Below the pieces are notes generated by a model. The model was not told where the DNA came from and searched no databases. It saw only the letters and a list, made by a program, of their open reading frames with translations. The translations under genes and the position numbers were made by a program. A stretch of 33,812 bases of DNA, from the IMG/VR virus record IMGVR_UViG_3300017716_001831, positions 1-33,812 of that record. The stretch is one strand, 5' to 3'. Positions 4,756 through 29,357 of this stretch are shown piece after piece. This DNA is from a virus. Its lineage: Duplodnaviria; Caudoviricetes. How positions within the stretch are numbered: the stretch's first letter is position 1; every line of letters starts with the position of its first letter.

Positions 4756-5807
4756 TTCACCCCGTAATTGTCGTGTAGCTGTGCGTAAATTTGTTTCATG
4801 TTGAGGTGGTCGGATTGTTCTGTAAGTTCGTCAACGGTAAAGACCAGGTACTCGATCAGTTCGATGAACCCCTCGTTAGTCTTTGGCATTAGCAGGTCAT
4901 AGTGTTTTAGCTGCCCGGAATCTGATGCTTTCCGATACTCCTTTTCGATCCTCTTCACGGTTTCTTCGTAAAAGCGTTCTGCTGTGTTGATCAGGTATCC
5001 CCATCGTGAGTCATCTTTGCCGAACGCAAACATGATTGGAATGTGATGCTCTGGCCTGCCGTTAATCGTCTTTACGATCTTGTCGTACCATCCTGCTCGT
5101 TGCTCGTAAGGCAATCGTTTAAGACCATTCGGGTTACATCCAAGCGTTGAGTACTGCGTTACTCGTACATGTTTGTCAGCAAGTTTTTTGTACTGTGCTG
5201 CGTCGAGCGCAAAATCGTTGACGTTGTTTGGGTCGTTGTTAATAAACGCAAAGTCTTTTGACCGTAACGGGTAGCTCAGCAGATCAACTGTCCTGGCATC
5301 GTCGTTCAAAGTTTCGATATACAACTCTGTTTGAGTTGTCCTGTTTACAAACTTCCATGATCGACCAGTGTCCGTCGTGCCACGCCTTGTCTCGTATGAG
5401 TGGCCTGCTGAATTGACGTACAGGTTTATGTGATCCTCTAAATTACTTTCGAGTCGTTCGTGTGTCTGTCCGTGCCGTTCAATGAAGAACAGGTTGAGAT
5501 CGAACTGTTTTGCTTTTTTAAGGATGAATGCAGCGTGTTTGATGAAGATTTCAGGTGATGACGCAATGCCGCCATCACGATCTGGCCCACCATCACCTGC
5601 GCACAAGTCGACCCACATAGCCCTGCTGCCAGCGTGTCTATCTAGAGCGCATACGCCTGCTTCTGCGCCGACCATAGCGTTTAGGATCGCATGTTTCATT
5701 GGTGTTCTGTCTGATGCGCCAACGAGTGTCGGTACTCTCGGTTTGGCTTTGATTGGTACTGATGGTTGTTCTTCTGGTTCGTCTTGGTTGAACAGGTCTG
5801 CTTGCAT
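4752..5807 (-). CDS. tcmP: three-Cys-motif partner protein (TcmP)-like, SAM-methyltransferase fold
   Basis: TxxKHAIL...WVDLCAGDG...SSP...FFIE...NDP pattern; directly upstream of and overlapping the DUF5131 gene, its usual partner. Confidence 0.65.
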   Translation of the reverse strand: MQADLFNQDEPEEQPSVPIKAKPRVPTLVGASDRTPMKHAILNAMVGAEAGVCALDRHAGSRAMWVDLCAGDGGPDRDGGIASSPEIFIKHAAFILKKAKQFDLNLFFIERHGQTHERLESNLEDHINLYVNSAGHSYETRRGTTDTGRSWKFVNRTTQTELYIETLNDDARTVDLLSYPLRSKDFAFINNDPNNVNDFALDAAQYKKLADKHVRVTQYSTLGCNPNGLKRLPYEQRAGWYDKIVKTINGRPEHHIPIMFAFGKDDSRWGYLINTAERFYEETVKRIEKEYRKASDSGQLKHYDLLMPKTNEGFIELIEYLVFTVDELTEQSDHLNMKQIYAQLHDNYGVK

Positions 5808-5816
5808 GTTTGTCCT

Positions 5817-6248: not shown

Positions 6249-6390
6249 CGGTTGTGGTTGACTCTCTGCATTGTGGGCAGTGTTCTGGGCACCACCAGCG
6301 GATGCCACGCACATCAGCTGTGTCGTGATCGATGCCAGGTGTTACCTGTTTGCCGCACTGGTGGCAGTGCTCAAGCTTTTGATCTGTCAT
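6238..6390 (-). CDS. small Cys-rich (zinc-ribbon-like) protein, 50 aa
   Basis: Translated by hand, below the ORF-track cutoff: MTDQKLEHCHQCGKQ...WWCPEHCPQCRE...; ATGA overlap with the upstream whiB stop. Confidence 0.6.
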   Translation of the reverse strand: MTDQKLEHCHQCGKQVTPGIDHDTADVRGIRWWCPEHCPQCRESTTTDEP

Positions 6391-6818
6391 GCGACTCCTT
6401 CGGGGTGTCGGGTGTTGTGCCGTCTGAGCGAGTCGGGTGTTATGTCAAGGTCGTGCGCTGCGATCTCTAAGGGTTCGGTCGCAATGATGTGATCTCGTAG
6501 TTGGAGGAGGTCGAGGTTTTTTTTGATCATGTGGCCTTTGGTGCGTTGTGCTGTGGTTTGCCCGCCGACAATCCCACCGGAATACCTGCCGAGGGCTTGT
6601 AGGCATTCGGCTTGTACTGGGCATTGTGCGCACACTGCTTGCGCTTGCCGTTGTTTCCTGTGCCCGTTGTACCCTGCTTCTGGGTAGAACAGGTTTGTGT
6701 CCATGCCACGGCACGCAGCGTGTTTACGCCAGTGGGCCTGTGCGTTGCAGTCCTCGACGATGATGGTGAGGTGGTCGATCATCTCAGCCCGCACAGGCAA
6801 CTTCATTAGGTCACTCAC
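6387..6818 (-). CDS. whiB: WhiB-family transcription factor with possible C-terminal HTH
   Basis: WRKHAACRGMDTNLFYPE...VCAQCPVQAEC...GIVGGQTTAQR; C-term EIAAHDLDITPDSLRR. Confidence 0.85.
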   Translation of the reverse strand: MSDLMKLPVRAEMIDHLTIIVEDCNAQAHWRKHAACRGMDTNLFYPEAGYNGHRKQRQAQAVCAQCPVQAECLQALGRYSGGIVGGQTTAQRTKGHMIKKNLDLLQLRDHIIATEPLEIAAHDLDITPDSLRRHNTRHPEGVA

Positions 6819-10115: not shown

Positions 10116-10265
10116 TCAGCGTGAGCCAGGGTGACGGTATTTTGCTAACTGGATCTGCCGCTTGCGGTCTGAGCGTGCCTTGATGCGTGCCGGTATGTCT
10201 CTGCCGAAGACGTACAGGCCGACACCAAAGATCATCGCAAACCCGAGTATCTGATCTTTGCTCAT
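10116..10265 (-). CDS. small membrane protein, 49 aa
   Basis: Translated by hand: MSKDQILGFAMIFGVGLYVFGRDIPARIKARSDRKRQIQLAKYRHPGSR; ATGA overlap with the upstream gene and AGGAG SD. Confidence 0.6.
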   Translation of the reverse strand: MSKDQILGFAMIFGVGLYVFGRDIPARIKARSDRKRQIQLAKYRHPGSR

Positions 10266-10462
10266 TCGCCATTCTCCTCTTGCTCAAGCGCTAGGTCTGC
10301 TGCGACATCGAGTATGTATTCGTGGTCAAAGATCATCTGACCGTTGCCGAGTGTGAACTCTGGTTTGAGTTGGCCGTTATGAACCCACCGTGTGACAGTC
10401 GCACGGTTAATACCGAGGATGAACGCAACTTCGGTTGTTGTGATCTTGCCTTCACTGGTCAT
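10262..10462 (-). CDS. excisionase/MerR-like helix-turn-helix DNA-binding protein
   Basis: ITTTEVAFILGINRATVTRWVHNGQL...GQMIF pattern. Confidence 0.8.
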   Translation of the reverse strand: MTSEGKITTTEVAFILGINRATVTRWVHNGQLKPEFTLGNGQMIFDHEYILDVAADLALEQEENGE

Positions 10463-10679: not shown

Positions 10680-11017
10680 AGCTGGCACCCTGCGATCAGG
10701 TGTGTGCCAGCTGGTGTGATGAGCTCGATGGTGTAATCACCTTTGTCGCCGCAAGCAGATGTTGCGTTGATACCAGAGTCAACAAGGTCGGCAACGATCT
10801 GCGCACAGCAGTCTTGCGACTCGTGGTGTAGGCCGCTGCGTGTCTCGTTGTCTACGCCTTCGAGCAGTTCGTAAATCGCTTTGTGTTGTGCTGTGTCTTG
10901 GAATGTTTCACGCAACGCCATGCCAAGTTCTTTGATCTGAGCGAGATGTTTGTTGTAGGTGAGGATCTGATCCTCGAGCCGGAGGTTGTGTAGGAGTCCT
11001 GCTGTAATTGCATTCAT
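10676..11017 (-). CDS. hypothetical protein, first gene of the early operon
   Basis: ATG at 11017 after AAAGGACAAAC; the longer ORF-track start would overlap the opposite-strand methyltransferase. Confidence 0.65.
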   Translation of the reverse strand: MNAITAGLLHNLRLEDQILTYNKHLAQIKELGMALRETFQDTAQHKAIYELLEGVDNETRSGLHHESQDCCAQIVADLVDSGINATSACGDKGDYTIELITPAGTHLIAGCQL

Positions 11018-11066
11018 GTGTTGTTTGTCCTTTGTGGTGGTGTGGTGGTACGCCCCGTTTCGTGGC

Positions 11067-11094
11067 GTGCAACCATTGTTGCACAGGTTGCAAC
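11067..11094. promoter_or_regulatory. operator-like palindromes in the divergent intergenic region
   Basis: GTGCAAC-CATT-GTTGCAC at 11067-11084 and GTTGCAAC at 11087-11094, between divergent starts 11017(-) and 11148(+). Confidence 0.4.
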
Positions 11095-11147
11095 GATTCG
11101 TGCGGCATTTCTCAAGTGTCACATCCGTTACATGGCAGACTGTCCTC

Positions 11148-12146
11148 ATGGAGACGAAACTAATCAGCAGCCGTAACGGCAGTGCAGACGCTCGCTCTCC
11201 AGAGTTGCTTGATGAACTCGTCCCTGAGGGCGTCCTATCGGCAATCACGGCTGAACCTCAACGGGCCGTGCCAAAGTTGGCTAAGGACGTCGACGTCTGC
11301 GCCGCTATTGAGGAGGCATGTGGGAAGATTCCGACATCCCATCAACTGGCATGTGGCGATGCCCGGGATCTTTCGTTCATTCCTGATGGCGCCGTTCAGC
11401 TGATTGTCACCTCTCCTCCTTACTGGACGTTAAAGGAATACGACGACGGACCAGCACAATTAGGGCACGTCGAGGATTACGAGTTGTTTAATGAACAGTT
11501 GGCTCTCGTTTGGGCTGAGTGTCTTCGCGTTCTTCAACCAGGCGGCAGACTCGTAATCAACGTCGGAGATGTATGCCTTCCTCGCCGCCGATTTGGTCGC
11601 CATGTTGTTGTGCCCCTCCACGCCACGATCCAGGAGCATTGCAGAACGATAGGCTTTGACAACCTTGCCACTTTGGTGTGGTACAAGATTTCAAACGCAA
11701 AGTTCGAGGCTGGCGGGGGCGCCTTTCTTGGCAAACCTTACGAGCCCAACGCCGTAATCAAGAATGACATCGAGTGGGTGCTCTTTCAAAAAAAGCCGGG
11801 TGGTTATAGGAGCCCAACCTACGCAGAGCGCTGCCTTTCAATTATCCCTGCGGAACGGCATCGCGAGTGGTTTCAACAGATTTGGACGCTTGGCGGTGCT
11901 TCAACGAAGAATCACCCAGCCCCCTTTCCACTCGCCTTTGCAGAACGTCTTGTGAGGATGTTTTCATTCGTTGGGGACACGGTACTTGACCCCTTTTCTG
12001 GGACAGCGACTACGTCTGCGGCGGCGATGGCTTGGGGGCGTGATTCGATTGGGGTGGAGAGCCAAGCTGCCTACCATTCGATGGCAGTAGAAAGGATCGA
12101 GGCTGCTGCGCTGGCGTCTCCCAAACCTATGGCGAGAAAACGGTGA
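11148..12146 (+). CDS. DNA N4-cytosine/N6-adenine methyltransferase, beta class (N6_N4_Mtase)
   Basis: Catalytic IVTSPPY precedes HPAPFP and SAM-binding VLDPFSGTATT; probable ATG at 11148. Confidence 0.92.
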   Translation: METKLISSRNGSADARSPELLDELVPEGVLSAITAEPQRAVPKLAKDVDVCAAIEEACGKIPTSHQLACGDARDLSFIPDGAVQLIVTSPPYWTLKEYDDGPAQLGHVEDYELFNEQLALVWAECLRVLQPGGRLVINVGDVCLPRRRFGRHVVVPLHATIQEHCRTIGFDNLATLVWYKISNAKFEAGGGAFLGKPYEPNAVIKNDIEWVLFQKKPGGYRSPTYAERCLSIIPAERHREWFQQIWTLGGASTKNHPAPFPLAFAERLVRMFSFVGDTVLDPFSGTATTSAAAMAWGRDSIGVESQAAYHSMAVERIEAAALASPKPMARKR

Positions 12147-12219
12147 GGGACAGCTCTCTGCCGCCTTTTGAGAGGGTATGCGTGCATCGGCAGGCTCGAA
12201 GTTGTTAGGGTAAATGGTG

Positions 12220-12243
12220 AAGCCCACGCAACAGCGTGGGCTT
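12220..12243 (+). terminator. hairpin downstream of the methyltransferase (possible terminator)
   Basis: AAGCCCACGC-AACA-GCGTGGGCTT perfect 10-bp stem; only a weak T-tail. Confidence 0.45.
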
Positions 12244-12273: not shown

Positions 12274-12699
12274 ATGATACGCACACCAAAGGCTGCGGCA
12301 CTGCTGTTTGCCGTTACAATCCCGTTACTCTTTGCAGCTAGTTGCACACCAGATGAGATAGCGCTTTACGCAACGATGACCGCTGATGAGCAGGCCGCTG
12401 TAAAAGCGCACTTGCAAGCGCAAGCCGCACCAGCTGCGCCAGCGCACACACCTCCTGGCGGTTTCCTCGCCTGCGTGCGTAGGCATGAGTCCGGTGGGAA
12501 CTATCAGGCCGAGAACCCTGTGAGCACAGCATCAGGTGCGTACCAGTTTCTTGATTCAACCTGGCGCACGATGTCTGCTCGAGCAGGCCACAGTGGTTGG
12601 GGTCATGCAGCATCAGCACCACCATGGGTGCAAGACGCTGTTGCACAGTTCACAGTCGATTCTGGTTGGCGGTCTGCTTGGAACGGTACGGGCTGCTAA
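12274..12699 (+). CDS. Rpf-like lytic transglycosylase, predicted lipoprotein
   Basis: Signal peptide MIRTPKAAALLFAVTIPLLFAAS-C24; FLACVRRHESGGNY...GAYQF..STW...QD.VA...W...C lysozyme-like Rpf motif; AGGAG SD. Confidence 0.85.
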   Translation: MIRTPKAAALLFAVTIPLLFAASCTPDEIALYATMTADEQAAVKAHLQAQAAPAAPAHTPPGGFLACVRRHESGGNYQAENPVSTASGAYQFLDSTWRTMSARAGHSGWGHAASAPPWVQDAVAQFTVDSGWRSAWNGTGC

Positions 12700-12720
12700 A
12701 ACATAACTGCGGACATGAAA

Positions 12721-12811
12721 GAACCCCCACATCGGCGCAGTGGGCTTGCGCACAAGATGTGGGGGTTCAATCTGACGGCCTGCAGAAGAGGACAAACAAA
12801 ACTGCGCCGTC
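12721..12811 (-). ncRNA. structured two-hairpin non-coding element (candidate antisense RNA; also a likely terminator between convergent genes)
   Basis: Stem GAACCCCCACATC/GATGTGGGGGTTC (12721-12768) with inner GCGCA/TGCGC stem; second stem GACGGC..GCAG/CTGC-GCCGTC (12774-12811); loops complementary to 27931-27984. Confidence 0.55.
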
Positions 12812-12817
12812 GACCTG

Positions 12818-13183
12818 TTAACCCTCGGTGTCGGTTTTGGCTGCTGCTTGCATCATGCGAAGCAGTCGCCCATCCTGATCAGATATCTCAGCCATACGGG
12901 TTTCAACAATCTGAAGCCGTACATGGATCGGCGGTGCAAGCCCGTTCGGGCCGAGGTGATAACGGTTGTAAGCATCAGCGTGCTCGACCTGCTGCCCAAG
13001 CTCGGTGATCTGGTCGTTTGTCGGTTCGAGTGATTCTTTGAAGTGGCGTTCAAACCATCGGCCGAGACTGCCAGTTACTTTTTCAAACAGTACGAACATT
13101 GCGCCTAGTCCTATAATCGTGCCGCCAATAATCCCGACAGTGAGACTCACCACTTGTATTGGTTCTAGCTCTGCAGCAAACAC
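12818..13183 (-). CDS. membrane-anchored coiled-coil protein (possible lysis accessory)
   Basis: N-terminal hydrophobic helix VVSLTVGIIGGTIIGLGAMFVLF; last gene of the late operon. Confidence 0.65.
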   Translation of the reverse strand: MFAAELEPIQVVSLTVGIIGGTIIGLGAMFVLFEKVTGSLGRWFERHFKESLEPTNDQITELGQQVEHADAYNRYHLGPNGLAPPIHVRLQIVETRMAEISDQDGRLLRMMQAAAKTDTEG

Positions 13184-26332: not shown

Positions 26333-27141
26333 TAGATCACCTCGGGTTTTCTCCACCAGAAGAAGTGTGCAATCAGGATGAGCGGCAACCATTGCACAGG
26401 TAACACTTGCGCTGCCGCTAAGGCCATCACAGGCCCTGCAGCCGTGTGCAACAAGCGAACCGTGTCAGTAGCAACCAACAGCTGTGCATACGCTAAAACG
26501 AGTATCAGGAGCGTCTGCCACGATGGCCGGTACAAAGCTGCCAAGGTTGCACCCCACGGTGCGACCATCAGCCAAGCGTCACGCCACCGCCCACGATGGG
26601 CTTCCAAAGCAGTGATCACAGGATGCTCATACACCCTGCGCAACAAAGGTTGTGCAGTTACCTGGTCGATCTGTGGTTTGCGAACAAACCACACAACAGC
26701 CGGCACAATCAAACCAATCAGCATGATCGGATGCCAAGCCCACACCGCAGCAAAAATTGGTGCAGTCTCTTTGATTGAAGCGGCAACAAGAATCAGCAGT
26801 ACCGCTACAGGCCACAGGCCGTGCTCGAAACAAGCAACAGCCATGATGCTCACTGCCATCGCAGGTAAGTCAACGCCAACAGGTCTTACTACTTGCGGGC
26901 CCCACACACCAGGCAGTGCAAGCAACAACACTGCTGCAGCCGTTGCACGCTCGATGCCAAGATCAGATCCCCACCACAACATGCCTGCTGCAGCGATCAC
27001 CCACGACGTAACCCACACTGCACGCCATCTGCGCAGATCATCCTTGCAGATGGTCGGTAGCAACCATCTCAGGTTGAACGGTCGTGCAACCGGAACACCA
27101 CGACCAGCGAGGATGTACCTAGACGCATCAGGTCCGAGCAT
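26332..27141 (-). CDS. polytopic membrane protein, GT-C-like glycosyltransferase candidate
   Basis: Multiple hydrophobic helices; D..RY, PF..R.L.P, VD and KET motifs reminiscent of GT-C fold enzymes. Confidence 0.5.
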   Translation of the reverse strand: MLGPDASRYILAGRGVPVARPFNLRWLLPTICKDDLRRWRAVWVTSWVIAAAGMLWWGSDLGIERATAAAVLLLALPGVWGPQVVRPVGVDLPAMAVSIMAVACFEHGLWPVAVLLILVAASIKETAPIFAAVWAWHPIMLIGLIVPAVVWFVRKPQIDQVTAQPLLRRVYEHPVITALEAHRGRWRDAWLMVAPWGATLAALYRPSWQTLLILVLAYAQLLVATDTVRLLHTAAGPVMALAAAQVLPVQWLPLILIAHFFWWRKPEVI

Positions 27142-27931
27142 TCTCGTCCGTAAGCTTTGGCTCCTCCGGCGGTGTTACACCCATTGTCTTAGTGTCTGAC
27201 GGCCAGTAAACCCTGCCGCCCTTGTGATGCCCAACATGCGCAGTCGTATCCACATAAACCTTGTGCCCTTGCTCGCCTGCACGCAAACAGAAACTTACAT
27301 CTTCGCCTAGCGCCCATTCCGAGCCGTCATCACCAAAGCGAATATCAAAACCAAACCAGCAGTTAGTACTACCACCACTCTGATCAAACATCTGTTGAAT
27401 GACTGAGCGGTGAATCAGCAGGCACCCTGTGCCAGTAGCGGCAACTTCTGCCAGCTGGTTTGGTGCCCAATCGAGCATCACTTGTGTGCAAGTCAAAGGA
27501 TTTTCGATAAACAAGGTGGGTATCACACCATCGGCGGTGAGGATCACACACAACGCACCAAGGATCTTGATGTCATGTTCGACCGCTCGTGCAACCATCT
27601 GGTGCATCAGCTGCGGTTCAAACACCATGTCAGTGTCCACAAACCACAGCCATTCGGCATCGGTGTACGTCTTTAAGAACTCGTCGCACAAACGGTTGCG
27701 AGCCTTCGCAAGGTTTGCTGTCGCCTCGAGCGCAACGTAATTGTGTAGTAGGCGCAACTCAATCGGGTTCGGTGACTCCGGACAGTCGAGCGCTTCCCAC
27801 ACTTGCACCGCACGTTCACGATCCCACACATCAAGCTCCCAAAAGGAACGCATGAACCGTGTGCTGATGTCGTGGCCTGTTGACGGAAACGCCAACAACA
27901 CTTGACCAGGGTGATCAAAACTGTCTTGCAT
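27128..27931 (-). CDS. GT-A (GT2-like) glycosyltransferase
   Basis: ARN...WLWFVDTDM (DxD), TGTGCLLIHRSV, GEDVSFC, VGH; ATG at 27931 after AAAGGACAAAC. Confidence 0.85.
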   Translation of the reverse strand: MQDSFDHPGQVLLAFPSTGHDISTRFMRSFWELDVWDRERAVQVWEALDCPESPNPIELRLLHNYVALEATANLAKARNRLCDEFLKTYTDAEWLWFVDTDMVFEPQLMHQMVARAVEHDIKILGALCVILTADGVIPTLFIENPLTCTQVMLDWAPNQLAEVAATGTGCLLIHRSVIQQMFDQSGGSTNCWFGFDIRFGDDGSEWALGEDVSFCLRAGEQGHKVYVDTTAHVGHHKGGRVYWPSDTKTMGVTPPEEPKLTDENART

Positions 27932-27962
27932 GTTTGTCCTTTGGTAGATCGGGTTAGGTGGT

Positions 27963-27993
27963 GTGGTGCAAGCAAGCCCACTGCTTGCACCAC
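27963..27993 (-). promoter_or_regulatory. 12-bp hairpin after the capsid gene (attenuator, stabiliser or antisense target)
   Basis: GTGGTGCAAGCA-(7-nt loop)-TGCTTGCACCAC with no T-tract. Confidence 0.6.
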
Positions 27994-28007
27994 CCATCCT
28001 AGTTAAC

Positions 28008-29357
28008 TCAGGAAAGAACCTGCTTAAAGCCTGTTCCTTGCAGGTTGCAGGTGGCCACTGGGTAGCGTCCTGCGGTGAATGCCGAGTAGCCGTAGGTCAC
28101 CATTGTGACGTTCAAGCTGGCTGCGGCAACCTCGTTAAGGGTAAGACCCACCGGAGCTCCGGCGTCTTCCATGAATAACACATCGCTGGCCCTCGTGACC
28201 ACTATGCGATCTTCATCAGTTGATGCGCCGAGGTTGGTTGGAATGCCTGCGTCAGTGATGACCTTGACGCCAGCGATTGAGCCAACGTAGCCATACGCTG
28301 CGGCTGCACCAGCGCCAACAGCGTTAAAGCTGTTGTAGCCCTCGATGGCAACAAGCGGACGCAGCGACGAATCAGACTGCGCACACAGGTAAGCCCAACG
28401 ACGAGGATGCATGACGATCAGGTCACCAGGAGCGAAGCGTGAGGTGTTGATCTTGCCGAGTGCATTGTGGATTGCAGCAACAAGGCTTGCGCCTGTGGTG
28501 CCGGTCCACGCTGCGGTCTGCACCGAAGTCGTGTTAAGGATTCCGAAGTGGCCTCCAGCGGTTCCGTCGCCACTAAGAGCGGAGACGTTGACCTTGGTTG
28601 CGTACTGCTGATACAGATCAGCCAGGAGGATCTGGCCGATGCCGGTTCCACGGTCGATGCTCTGACGAGAAACAACCTGCTGCCCAGCGAACGTGCGAAC
28701 CGGAACCGTAAGGTCAGACTCGGTGAACGTCTGGTTGGTTACTGCTGTGCCTTCAGTGGTCTGAGCGGCAACACCTGTGGAGGTAGCGCCACGAGGGATA
28801 AACATGCTCATCCCAGTTGCGGGCAAGGCCACTTTTGTGACCGCTTCAAGGAATGGCCGACCGGATGCAAGCGTCGCAGCGAACTGGTCTGTGAGATAGG
28901 CCGGAACGACTAAAGCCCCGAAGTTGCCGCTCGTCGAGCGGTACTCGGCGAGGGCTTCATCACGGGCACGAGCAATACGATCAGACGCAGCGTTGTCATT
29001 GCCGAACTTCGCAGCAATAGCATCGCTCAAAAAGTCATGCTCACCGTCTGCACGATAGGTCTTCTCTTCTGAAACAACACGGATGTTCATGGGTAGAACT
29101 TCTTTTCTGACCTCAGCGGCCTTGTCGGAACGGGTAGCAAGATCCACGAGGTCAGACTCACGAGCCTGCAATGCGGTGATCTTGTCATCAATCTCACGAA
29201 GCTCAGCACGAGCAACGTCGAACTTCTCTGTTTCTTCAGCCGTCATATCTGAACGGCCTTCGGTTTCTGCGACAGCGAGGATTGCCTCAACTGCAGCTTG
29301 TGACGCATCACGCTCATCGAGCGCTGCTGCGATCAGGGTACGAATTTGGTCCAACAT
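28008..29357 (-). CDS. major capsid protein, HK97 fold with N-terminal delta domain
   Basis: Coiled-coil N-terminus, G.LVVP, VSRQ.ID, L.GDG...G.LN, VMHPRRW; follows the protease. Confidence 0.93.
   Translation of the reverse strand: MLDQIRTLIAAALDERDASQAAVEAILAVAETEGRSDMTAEETEKFDVARAELREIDDKITALQARESDLVDLATRSDKAAEVRKEVLPMNIRVVSEEKTYRADGEHDFLSDAIAAKFGNDNAASDRIARARDEALAEYRSTSGNFGALVVPAYLTDQFAATLASGRPFLEAVTKVALPATGMSMFIPRGATSTGVAAQTTEGTAVTNQTFTESDLTVPVRTFAGQQVVSRQSIDRGTGIGQILLADLYQQYATKVNVSALSGDGTAGGHFGILNTTSVQTAAWTGTTGASLVAAIHNALGKINTSRFAPGDLIVMHPRRWAYLCAQSDSSLRPLVAIEGYNSFNAVGAGAAAAYGYVGSIAGVKVITDAGIPTNLGASTDEDRIVVTRASDVLFMEDAGAPVGLTLNEVAAASLNVTMVTYGYSAFTAGRYPVATCNLQGTGFKQVLS

Follow-up and report, generated by a model that had tools for sequence, protein, structure and literature searches.

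The DNA analysed here (the window, 33,812 nt) is the near-complete genome of a siphovirus of ~31-34 kb, and two WhiB genes, an Rpf-like transglycosylase gene and a capsid 33-35% similar to those of mycobacteriophages point to an actinobacterial host. Late genes run along the minus strand from the terminase gene to 12818, early genes lie on the same strand starting at 11017, and the only opposite-facing genes are the Rpf-like gene and a DNA methyltransferase gene. A relative, G001, is circularly permuted and holds the same gene set minus the methyltransferase. Integrase and repressor families gave no match among the 47 window ORFs scanned, and neither function was found among the ORFs scanned in the main lineage of relatives. 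G001-G003 lack the methyltransferase gene (11116-12165), an insertion that contigs from 4 of the 4 sequencing runs compared also skip; these runs show strain variants. Between the divergent early and Rpf promoters, positions 11065-11095 carry conserved, operator-like GTTGCA/TGCAAC inverted repeats, and the window has an HTH gene at 10262-10462. Short GTGTCCC(G) repeats lie at the end of the primase-helicase gene (1335-1499), where relatives have a hairpin, and are possibly a replication origin.

The major capsid protein (HK97 type; PF05065, phrog_2263) is encoded at 28008-29357 on the minus strand. The first cistron past it (27128-27931, minus strand) encodes a GT2-like glycosyltransferase, hereafter GT2, with weak family matches (PF13641, E 6e-5, below the curated cut-off; phrog_34859, E 2e-6; TIGR03469, E 6e-6, below the cut-off). 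From GT2 to the last late gene, all cistrons lie on the same strand and overlap or nearly touch, with every gap ≤39 nt, and we infer that the stretch up to the late operon end is one continuous transcript. That last gene (12818-13183, minus strand; 121 aa) is without a family match and variable among relatives (36-86% identity). The Rpf-like gene (12274-12699, plus strand; PF06737) is its convergent neighbour, outside the system described here, and is displaced or absent in L144, L155, L228 and G006. INPHARED contains no GT2 relative and capsid relatives at best ~33-35% similar, and thus offers no cultured model phage.

Directly past the late operon, the minus strand folds into two hairpins, as an earlier note made from the letters of this DNA had described. 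Their extent is slightly greater than the 12811-12721 given there, as an outer helix and a UUUC tail carry the candidate RNA (hereafter the element) from 12815 to 12717, a length of 99 nt that begins 3 nt past the last late stop codon. Hairpin 1 (12815-12769) is closed by an outer GGUC/GAUU helix that directly abuts hairpin 2, and bears a pyrimidine-rich loop of 16 nt (UUUUGUUUGUCCUCUU; loop 1, 12801-12786) that is complementary to the GT2 ribosome-binding site and is a variable seed in relatives. Hairpin 2 (12768-12717), with its UUCUUUC end, presents the 7-nt AGCCCAC (loop 2, 12746-12740), a predicted kissing loop. The 99-nt element folds at -48.5 kcal/mol (z -4.9), and the span 12721-12811 reaches z -5.7 on the minus and -6.3 on the plus strand, with 0 of 200 shuffles as good. 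In the computed ensemble both loops are largely unpaired. Hairpin 2, with its U-rich end, is likely the late-operon terminator; a simple terminator scan called 0 sites, hairpin 2 included. In L155 the next gene on the late strand has its own promoter-like TAGGGT (read by eye).

Both loops have complementary sequence 15 kb upstream, between the capsid and GT2 genes. A 13-nt word, GCAGTGGGCTTGC, occurs at 12737-12749 on the plus strand and at 27984-27972 on the minus strand, and AGGACAAACA occurs at 12789-12798 (plus) and at 27940-27931, 5816-5807 and 11031-11021 (minus; 11 nt in the last case), the final A of the copy at 27940-27931 being the A of the GT2 ATG. These are the places to which the earlier note had assigned the matches, and the similar spacing that it reported also holds (gaps of 39 and 31 nt). 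The 13-nt apex complement is exact as sequence, but the free match is 7 nt, because in each of the two hairpins 6 of the 13 apex bases belong to self-complementary stem. The predicted partner of loop 2 is the apex GUGGGCU (27981-27975) of a post-capsid hairpin that has no U tract (27954-28001, minus strand), an apex found in 35 of 37 leaders. That of loop 1 is the GT2 translation-initiation region (AGGACAAAC-AUG-CAAGA; 27923-27940, minus strand), whose ribosome-binding site is covered by loop 1 of the main lineage over 10-11 nt.

In silico, the two-loop complementarity to the GT2 leader amounts to 10 + 7 nt, and the GT2 start ranks first of 45 annotated starts in combined two-loop pairing (-26.7; next -24.1). 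Among the starts compared, the GT2 leader alone offers the loop 2 site. G003 carries both ends, with a C-to-U change in the target absorbed through G·U. The cofold minimum-energy structure, a model in which kissing loops cannot be represented, contained no extended intermolecular duplex. The ribosome-binding word also precedes, as had been claimed, a tcmP-like gene (5807-5816, minus strand; 10-nt match) and the first early gene (11017-11031, minus strand; 11-nt match), both candidate second targets through loop 1 only. The tcmP-like gene has a TIGR04474 match of E 0.002, below the cut-off, and is missing from G001 and G002.

Chance has to be weighed here, since the window holds 63 maximal repeats of at least 13 nt and paired matches of the 13 + 10 size arise by chance in coding DNA. 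Such a pair is not rare by itself, because the window contains three, counting the one between element and leader (a scan in the other orientation gave two), and 10 of 120 block shuffles yield at least one. Its placement is what goes beyond chance: both ends are intergenic, in a genome where intergenic DNA makes up 3.6% of the window, both lie within strong intergenic hairpins, and the apex match recurs across G000-G003, whereas no background pair recurs. In G003 the 10-mer has one G·U, and the script there coupled the 13-mer to a chance partner. Thus, while the shuffling comparison proposed at the outset does not make the paired match rare, location and conservation, not the paired match alone, carry the case for the element.

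The element is present in 22 other contigs, comprising 8 viral contigs, 13 metagenomic Rpf loci and 1 GTDB contig. Seven viral copies are full-length and L281/G006 keeps hairpin 2 alone; the 13 loci are among 80 kept from 220 found in metagenomes, where one further locus is the window's own contig and the element of L144 is cut off. Several of the 22 contigs probably represent the same population, and there are 14 distinct full-length sequences including the window, with all carriers belonging to one phage clade. In the main lineage the element is 93-99% identical to the window, and in 6 of the 7 cases that could be measured identity drops to 50-54% in its 5' flank. A scan for a promoter from which the element might be transcribed separately gave no promoter-like site; this and the unconserved 5' flank make it likely that any small RNA is a processed end fragment. 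Hairpin 2 ends in GGGGUUCUUUC in 15 of 15 aligned rows, and the GCCCAC of loop 2 is invariant in the same 15 rows and also in G006.

Across the 15 rows, 95.6% of cells are paired, and double-sided changes occur in 7 of 33 pairs, a level reached in 0 of 500 shuffles (the structure being derived from the window, and hairpin 1 being misregistered by MAFFT in four rows). Searches beyond the clade returned little: a covariance model run against 74 sources found no match beyond the window and L144 (next best 22 bits), and no homologue was found in G004, G005 and G007, whose structural genes are more distant. The whole window gave 0 Rfam matches at E≤2 against 4227 families including RF01695, and INPHARED yielded only partial 16-29% matches to the terminator stem (4 records). 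Of 37 GTDB matches, all screened by blastn and 5 read by eye, one is real (L236). Stem-only and linker scans returned the same six close contigs, the remaining 12 of 18 and 13 of 19 matches being chance, and exonuclease and tail-protein scans added no element. The virus RNA catalogue of Fremin et al. (PMC10690425) gave 0 matches in three of its supplementary files, and the element may be present as an unannotated candidate in other supplements. On sequence evidence, we conclude that the element is a real, conserved RNA structure, uncatalogued in the collections searched.

Several lines of evidence attach this structure to the late strand. For the elements of L138, L139, L146, L149 and L228, folding on the late strand gains 2.3-12.9 kcal/mol over the opposite strand. 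Main-type copies show no strand preference, apart from that of L156, for which the opposite strand is favoured by 1.5 kcal/mol. The late-strand version of hairpin 1 contains more pairs in 11 of 14 variants, and the two strands tie in the other 3. G·U pairs and the invariant UUCUUUC tail point to the late strand. In L155 a 416-aa gene separates the element from Rpf. In the temperate L228 and G006 there is no Rpf at the element, which is immediately followed by an attP-like tRNA end and an integrase; in L228 identity to the window begins at 12717 and the early genes differ. As Rpf is replaced in temperate carriers of the late module, lytic-looking and temperate early modules are exchanged at the element. 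Together, the late-strand bias, the invariant U-rich end and the arrangement in L155, L228 and G006 show that the element belongs to the 3' end of the late operon. The segments that replace Rpf (L228 3688-6170, L281 10440-11114) consist of a tRNA-3'-end attP-like segment, a tyrosine integrase and an HTH repressor. The 416-aa gene is of the alginate-lyase family (PF05426, tested for L155), convergent with Rpf and apparently leaderless (L155 360-1610, L148 3411-4661).

Two alternatives place the function with the Rpf-like gene instead, and both fail on the observation that the element stays with the late module when Rpf is displaced or absent. According to one, which was also raised in the earlier note and which we regard as very improbable, a protein binds the GUGGGCU-loop and AGGACAAAC motifs in the same sense, the plus-strand copy past the Rpf-like gene serving as a decoy. 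In the window's copy, the plus strand does fold as well as the minus strand, and it has the same 5-nt, G·U-closed loop that is seen in the post-capsid hairpin. However, G·U pairs in the diverged variants speak for the late strand, and in L144, L155 (by the 416-aa gene), L228 and G006 the element is severed from Rpf. Between lineages, the word in common moves to other registers, as suits base pairing and not a protein motif. Decoys of the CsrB/RsmZ type carry repeated, conserved GGA motifs in loops; there is one loop GGA in the window, and it is lost in L138-L140 and L228.

The other, which we find hardly credible, has a late-strand RNA repress the convergent Rpf-like gene through its leader (GUGGGCUUG ... 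AGGAGACAAUCAA). Both words have degenerate copies in that leader, which takes rank 5 of 45, but the site is buried in the leader's own hairpin and has become GUGGGCC in L004 and L149 while loop 2 is unchanged. Antitoxin RNAs of the par/Fst type, which such an arrangement would resemble, are obligately convergent with their target gene and share its terminator. In L155 the 416-aa gene intervenes, and in L228 and G006 there is no Rpf beside the element.

Diverged relatives provide natural variants of the predicted pairing. Their loop 1 is rewritten, and the GT2 start is still matched in other registers. The loop of L139 and L140, UUGCAUGUU, is the exact complement of AACAUGCAA, pairing 9 of 9 bases across the GT2 AUG; AACAUGCAA has two copies in the window, one at the GT2 start codon and one at that of the tcmP-like gene, and is present in 34 of 36 GT2 leaders. 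The L149 loop has an 8-nt pairing with the AGGAUAAAC leader type (12 of 36 leaders), and loop 1 of L228 pairs over 8 nt, one of them through G·U, with codons 2-4 in L022. An A-to-G variant of loop 2 (L138-L140, L228) makes a G·U with GUGGGCU and pairs fully with GUGGGCC, and the L228 loops reach their best helix energy with the sole GUGGGCC leader, that of L022; the contig names of L022 and L228 share a dataset number. The natural variants of loop and target are mostly complementary across contigs, with L138 and L042 as exceptions: with the window-type leader, loop 1 of L138 is mismatched at its centre and gains no net pairing, and in leader L042 both variant matches and the loop-2 core (GUGUGCU) are broken. 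The loops of L149 (rank 20 of 43) and L228 (rank 5 of 43; partly self-paired) are poor fits to the window-type leader. Loop-target covariation is putative and read across contigs, because no diverged loop (L138-L140, L149, L228) shares a contig with its own GT2 leader.

Hairpin 1 has changed fast and yet kept its shape, as the elements of L138-L140, L149 and L228 are 70-85% identical to the window and their own coding 5' flanks 83-89%. Such turnover bears on another alternative, namely that the element is a terminator with a stabilising hairpin only, and that the matches come from a repeated ribosome-binding phrase, common GGGCUU/AAGCCC hairpin words and shared ancestry. We consider this unlikely, as a terminator needs no open matching loop, and the rewritten hairpin 1 keeps its stem and an open pyrimidine-rich loop, matching the GT2 start again in 4 of 5 contigs. 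The background paired matches and the confinement of all carriers to one clade agree with it, as do a third GTGGGCTT palindrome at 12220-12243, similar words in unrelated hairpins of L151 and L152, and the retention of hairpin 2 by itself in G006.

G006 is a natural control: it has a different capsid, no GT2 behind it and a tetraloop hairpin in that place, and it has lost hairpin 1. It keeps loop 2 unchanged without an exposed partner, and its hairpin 2 stands at the edge of a block 81% identical to L228, so that hairpin 2 may have been exchanged recently with the attP block. As for the palindrome at 12220-12243, we rejected it as a partner of loop 2. In the Rpf-like leader it folds into a hairpin immediately behind a TAGGGT box; L149 shows a compensatory change there, and the hairpin is likely a 5' stabiliser or a late-strand read-through terminator.

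The targets of loop 1 may extend to other genes. On the late strand, loop-1 matches of at least 9 nt lie at gene starts in 3 of 5 cases in G000, 4 of 5 in G001, 4 of 5 in G002 and 3 of 4 in G003 (the last count including one doubtful internal start), mostly at early genes and in a set that differs between genomes. The main match is largely anti-Shine-Dalgarno and common to 2-3 other starts per genome. Loop 1 might therefore be read as mainly an anti-start-tag guide that silences several early genes late in infection, with the GT2 leader as one target among several and, in temperate relatives, the first lytic cistron shut off. This we think improbable, even though long loop-1 matches cluster at gene starts in G000-G003, reaching 11-12 nt at the first early gene, and loop 1 of L228 has an 8-nt match on its own contig, at the GTG that opens a leader ORF of 24 codons, the stop of which overlaps a cro-like ORF at its start. 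In L138-L140 the loops fail to match the early starts of the same phage (-3.1 to -5.5 kcal/mol), and L003 and G003 combine a main-type loop with a first early start that it does not match. Which early starts are matched differs from genome to genome, and the loop-2 site is found only in the GT2 leader. Because the L138-L140 loops miss their own early starts, GT2 stands out as the most consistent target, to which early genes may be added. Other AGGACAAAC-led genes may also be repressed, as proposed earlier, but through one loop only, and early-gene starts may be second targets.

We favour, at a probability of roughly 60%, the reading that the element yields a 3'-end-derived antisense RNA that damps the genes downstream of the capsid gene, with two loops and otherwise like OppZ of Vibrio. 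It builds on the observed position, fold, conservation, late-strand bias and complementarity of the element. Termination, processing, binding and repression would take the following course. Hairpin 2 would terminate the late transcript, and the closed 5' helix would let an end fragment of ~100 nt survive mRNA decay. Loop 2 would kiss the loop of the post-capsid hairpin over 6-7 bp, and loop 1 would cover the GT2 ribosome-binding site or start codon over 8-11 bp. As the cistrons from GT2 on overlap or nearly touch, reduced GT2 initiation would lower the whole downstream block, the effect spreading through lost translational coupling or polarity. Capsid output would be unaffected, so that negative feedback would keep capsid high relative to modification, connector and tail proteins, and polarity would also lower the antisense RNA's own supply. 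Alternatively, the pairing may take place in cis, over 15 kb within the same mRNA.

The minus-strand two-loop RNA acting on the capsid-GT2 leader, as the earlier note conceived it, gains from conservation, strand asymmetry and the re-registered loop variants, with loop and target linked across contigs only. Its naming of a 'glycosylation cassette' as the target is too narrow, as the downstream cistrons include head-tail joining and tail genes. More tentatively, the final 100 nt of the late mRNA could give rise to a chaperone-free phage RNA that docks by two loops 15 kb upstream and sets virion stoichiometry by feedback, the same re-programmable loop silencing early starts. The seed loop, rewritten faster than the neighbouring coding DNA, may define specificity groups among co-infecting phages.

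Comparison with known systems supports a change of framing. The C4 RNA of P1/P7 uses separate exposed segments to pair with two target sites, and the plasmid antisense RNAs ColE1 RNA I and R1 CopA rely on loop-loop recognition by 6-7 G+C-rich bases. RNA I and CopA are cis-encoded and fully complementary, whereas the element's complementarity consists of two short loops and a distant site. C4 constitutes Rfam family RF01695 (as cited in PMC2864571), and P4 CI, in the account of PMC4825925, arises by processing of a transcript that is not translated, has its targets seqA and seqC on either side, and imposes the termination that goes with lysogeny. Like these, as far as those accounts go, the element would be a small structured phage RNA with separate exposed segments against two sites, a likeness established here in silico. 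Unlike them, it ends the late operon, and its predicted two-site target is the mRNA of structural genes 15 kb upstream. The window shows no immunity-operon location with flanking targets and the family covariance model found no match, so the C4/CI framing of the earlier note does not hold; the temperate L228 has a one-site match at its own first early start.

By analogy, the closer counterpart is a 3'-UTR-derived autoregulatory sRNA of the OppZ type. OppZ and CarZ are such sRNAs of Vibrio cholerae (PMC7398697; review PMC9438474), and OppZ is described there as 52 nt long, RNase E-released and Hfq-dependent, with a single 5' seed that pairs at the oppA-oppB junction and spares oppA (PMC7398697, PMC9438474). 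What the element would share with OppZ and CarZ, on those descriptions, is origin at an operon 3' end, pairing at the start of the second cistron, sparing of a first, high-demand gene and stoichiometric feedback, the last three being predictions here. Its place 3 nt past the stop codon, with an invariant GGGGUUCUUUC, a predicted terminator and linkage to the late module, agrees with that type, as does complementarity to a translation start within its own operon (GT2, rank 1 of 45). The element differs from OppZ as described in being phage-borne and ~99 nt long, in having two loops, one of them the predicted terminator loop, and in its predicted reach of 15 kb; the Rfam comparison found no sequence relation between it and OppZ or CarZ.

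Hfq is not known from Actinobacteria. An Hfq-independent 3'-UTR RNA of a size similar to the element, s-SodF, has been described in the actinobacterium Streptomyces coelicolor, where it destabilises the RNA of another gene, sodN, through one 19-nt stretch (PMC3919588, PMC9438474). According to these sources it differs from the element in lacking feedback on its own operon, in being non-phage and in not having two loops. In a literature search of mostly open-access papers, we found no phage late-operon RNA of the element's kind; the logic was found for bacterial operons.

The excess of siphovirus capsid over connector, tail and modification proteins made from one late mRNA is usually ascribed to ribosome-binding strength and leaky terminators. 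If the favoured reading is true, feedback by a 3'-end RNA on the post-capsid junction adds active RNA control of virion stoichiometry. The system is tiny, with a 99-nt RNA, an 80-nt target and natural variants of loop and target supplied, so that a two-colour reporter in a laboratory actinobacterium would suffice and the uncultured phage would be unnecessary.

Hairpins with tag-complementary or anti-SD-like loops occur in other phages too. G005 (L116/L117) carries four repeated promoter-plus-leader modules in late orientation (5655-5715, 21325, 22400 and 26280) with the same terminal RBS tag, and a fifth start has the RBS tag alone. Just upstream of its GT2 gene, a hairpin at 6358-6415 has a loop complementary to the RBS tag over 11-12 nt; hairpin and tag are a possible separate antisense system, as read from their complementarity. 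L152 (2843-2918) and L154 (383-458), in which the element is absent, have a 13-bp hairpin between Rpf and the convergent late end, whose late-strand loop UGCCUCCCAUUCCC contains anti-SD and anti-AUG words and may be an analogue. Among the distant capsid relatives L053-L086 (~40% identity), many have hairpins past the capsid stop codon with CCCCUC/CCCUCC (anti-SD-like) loops.
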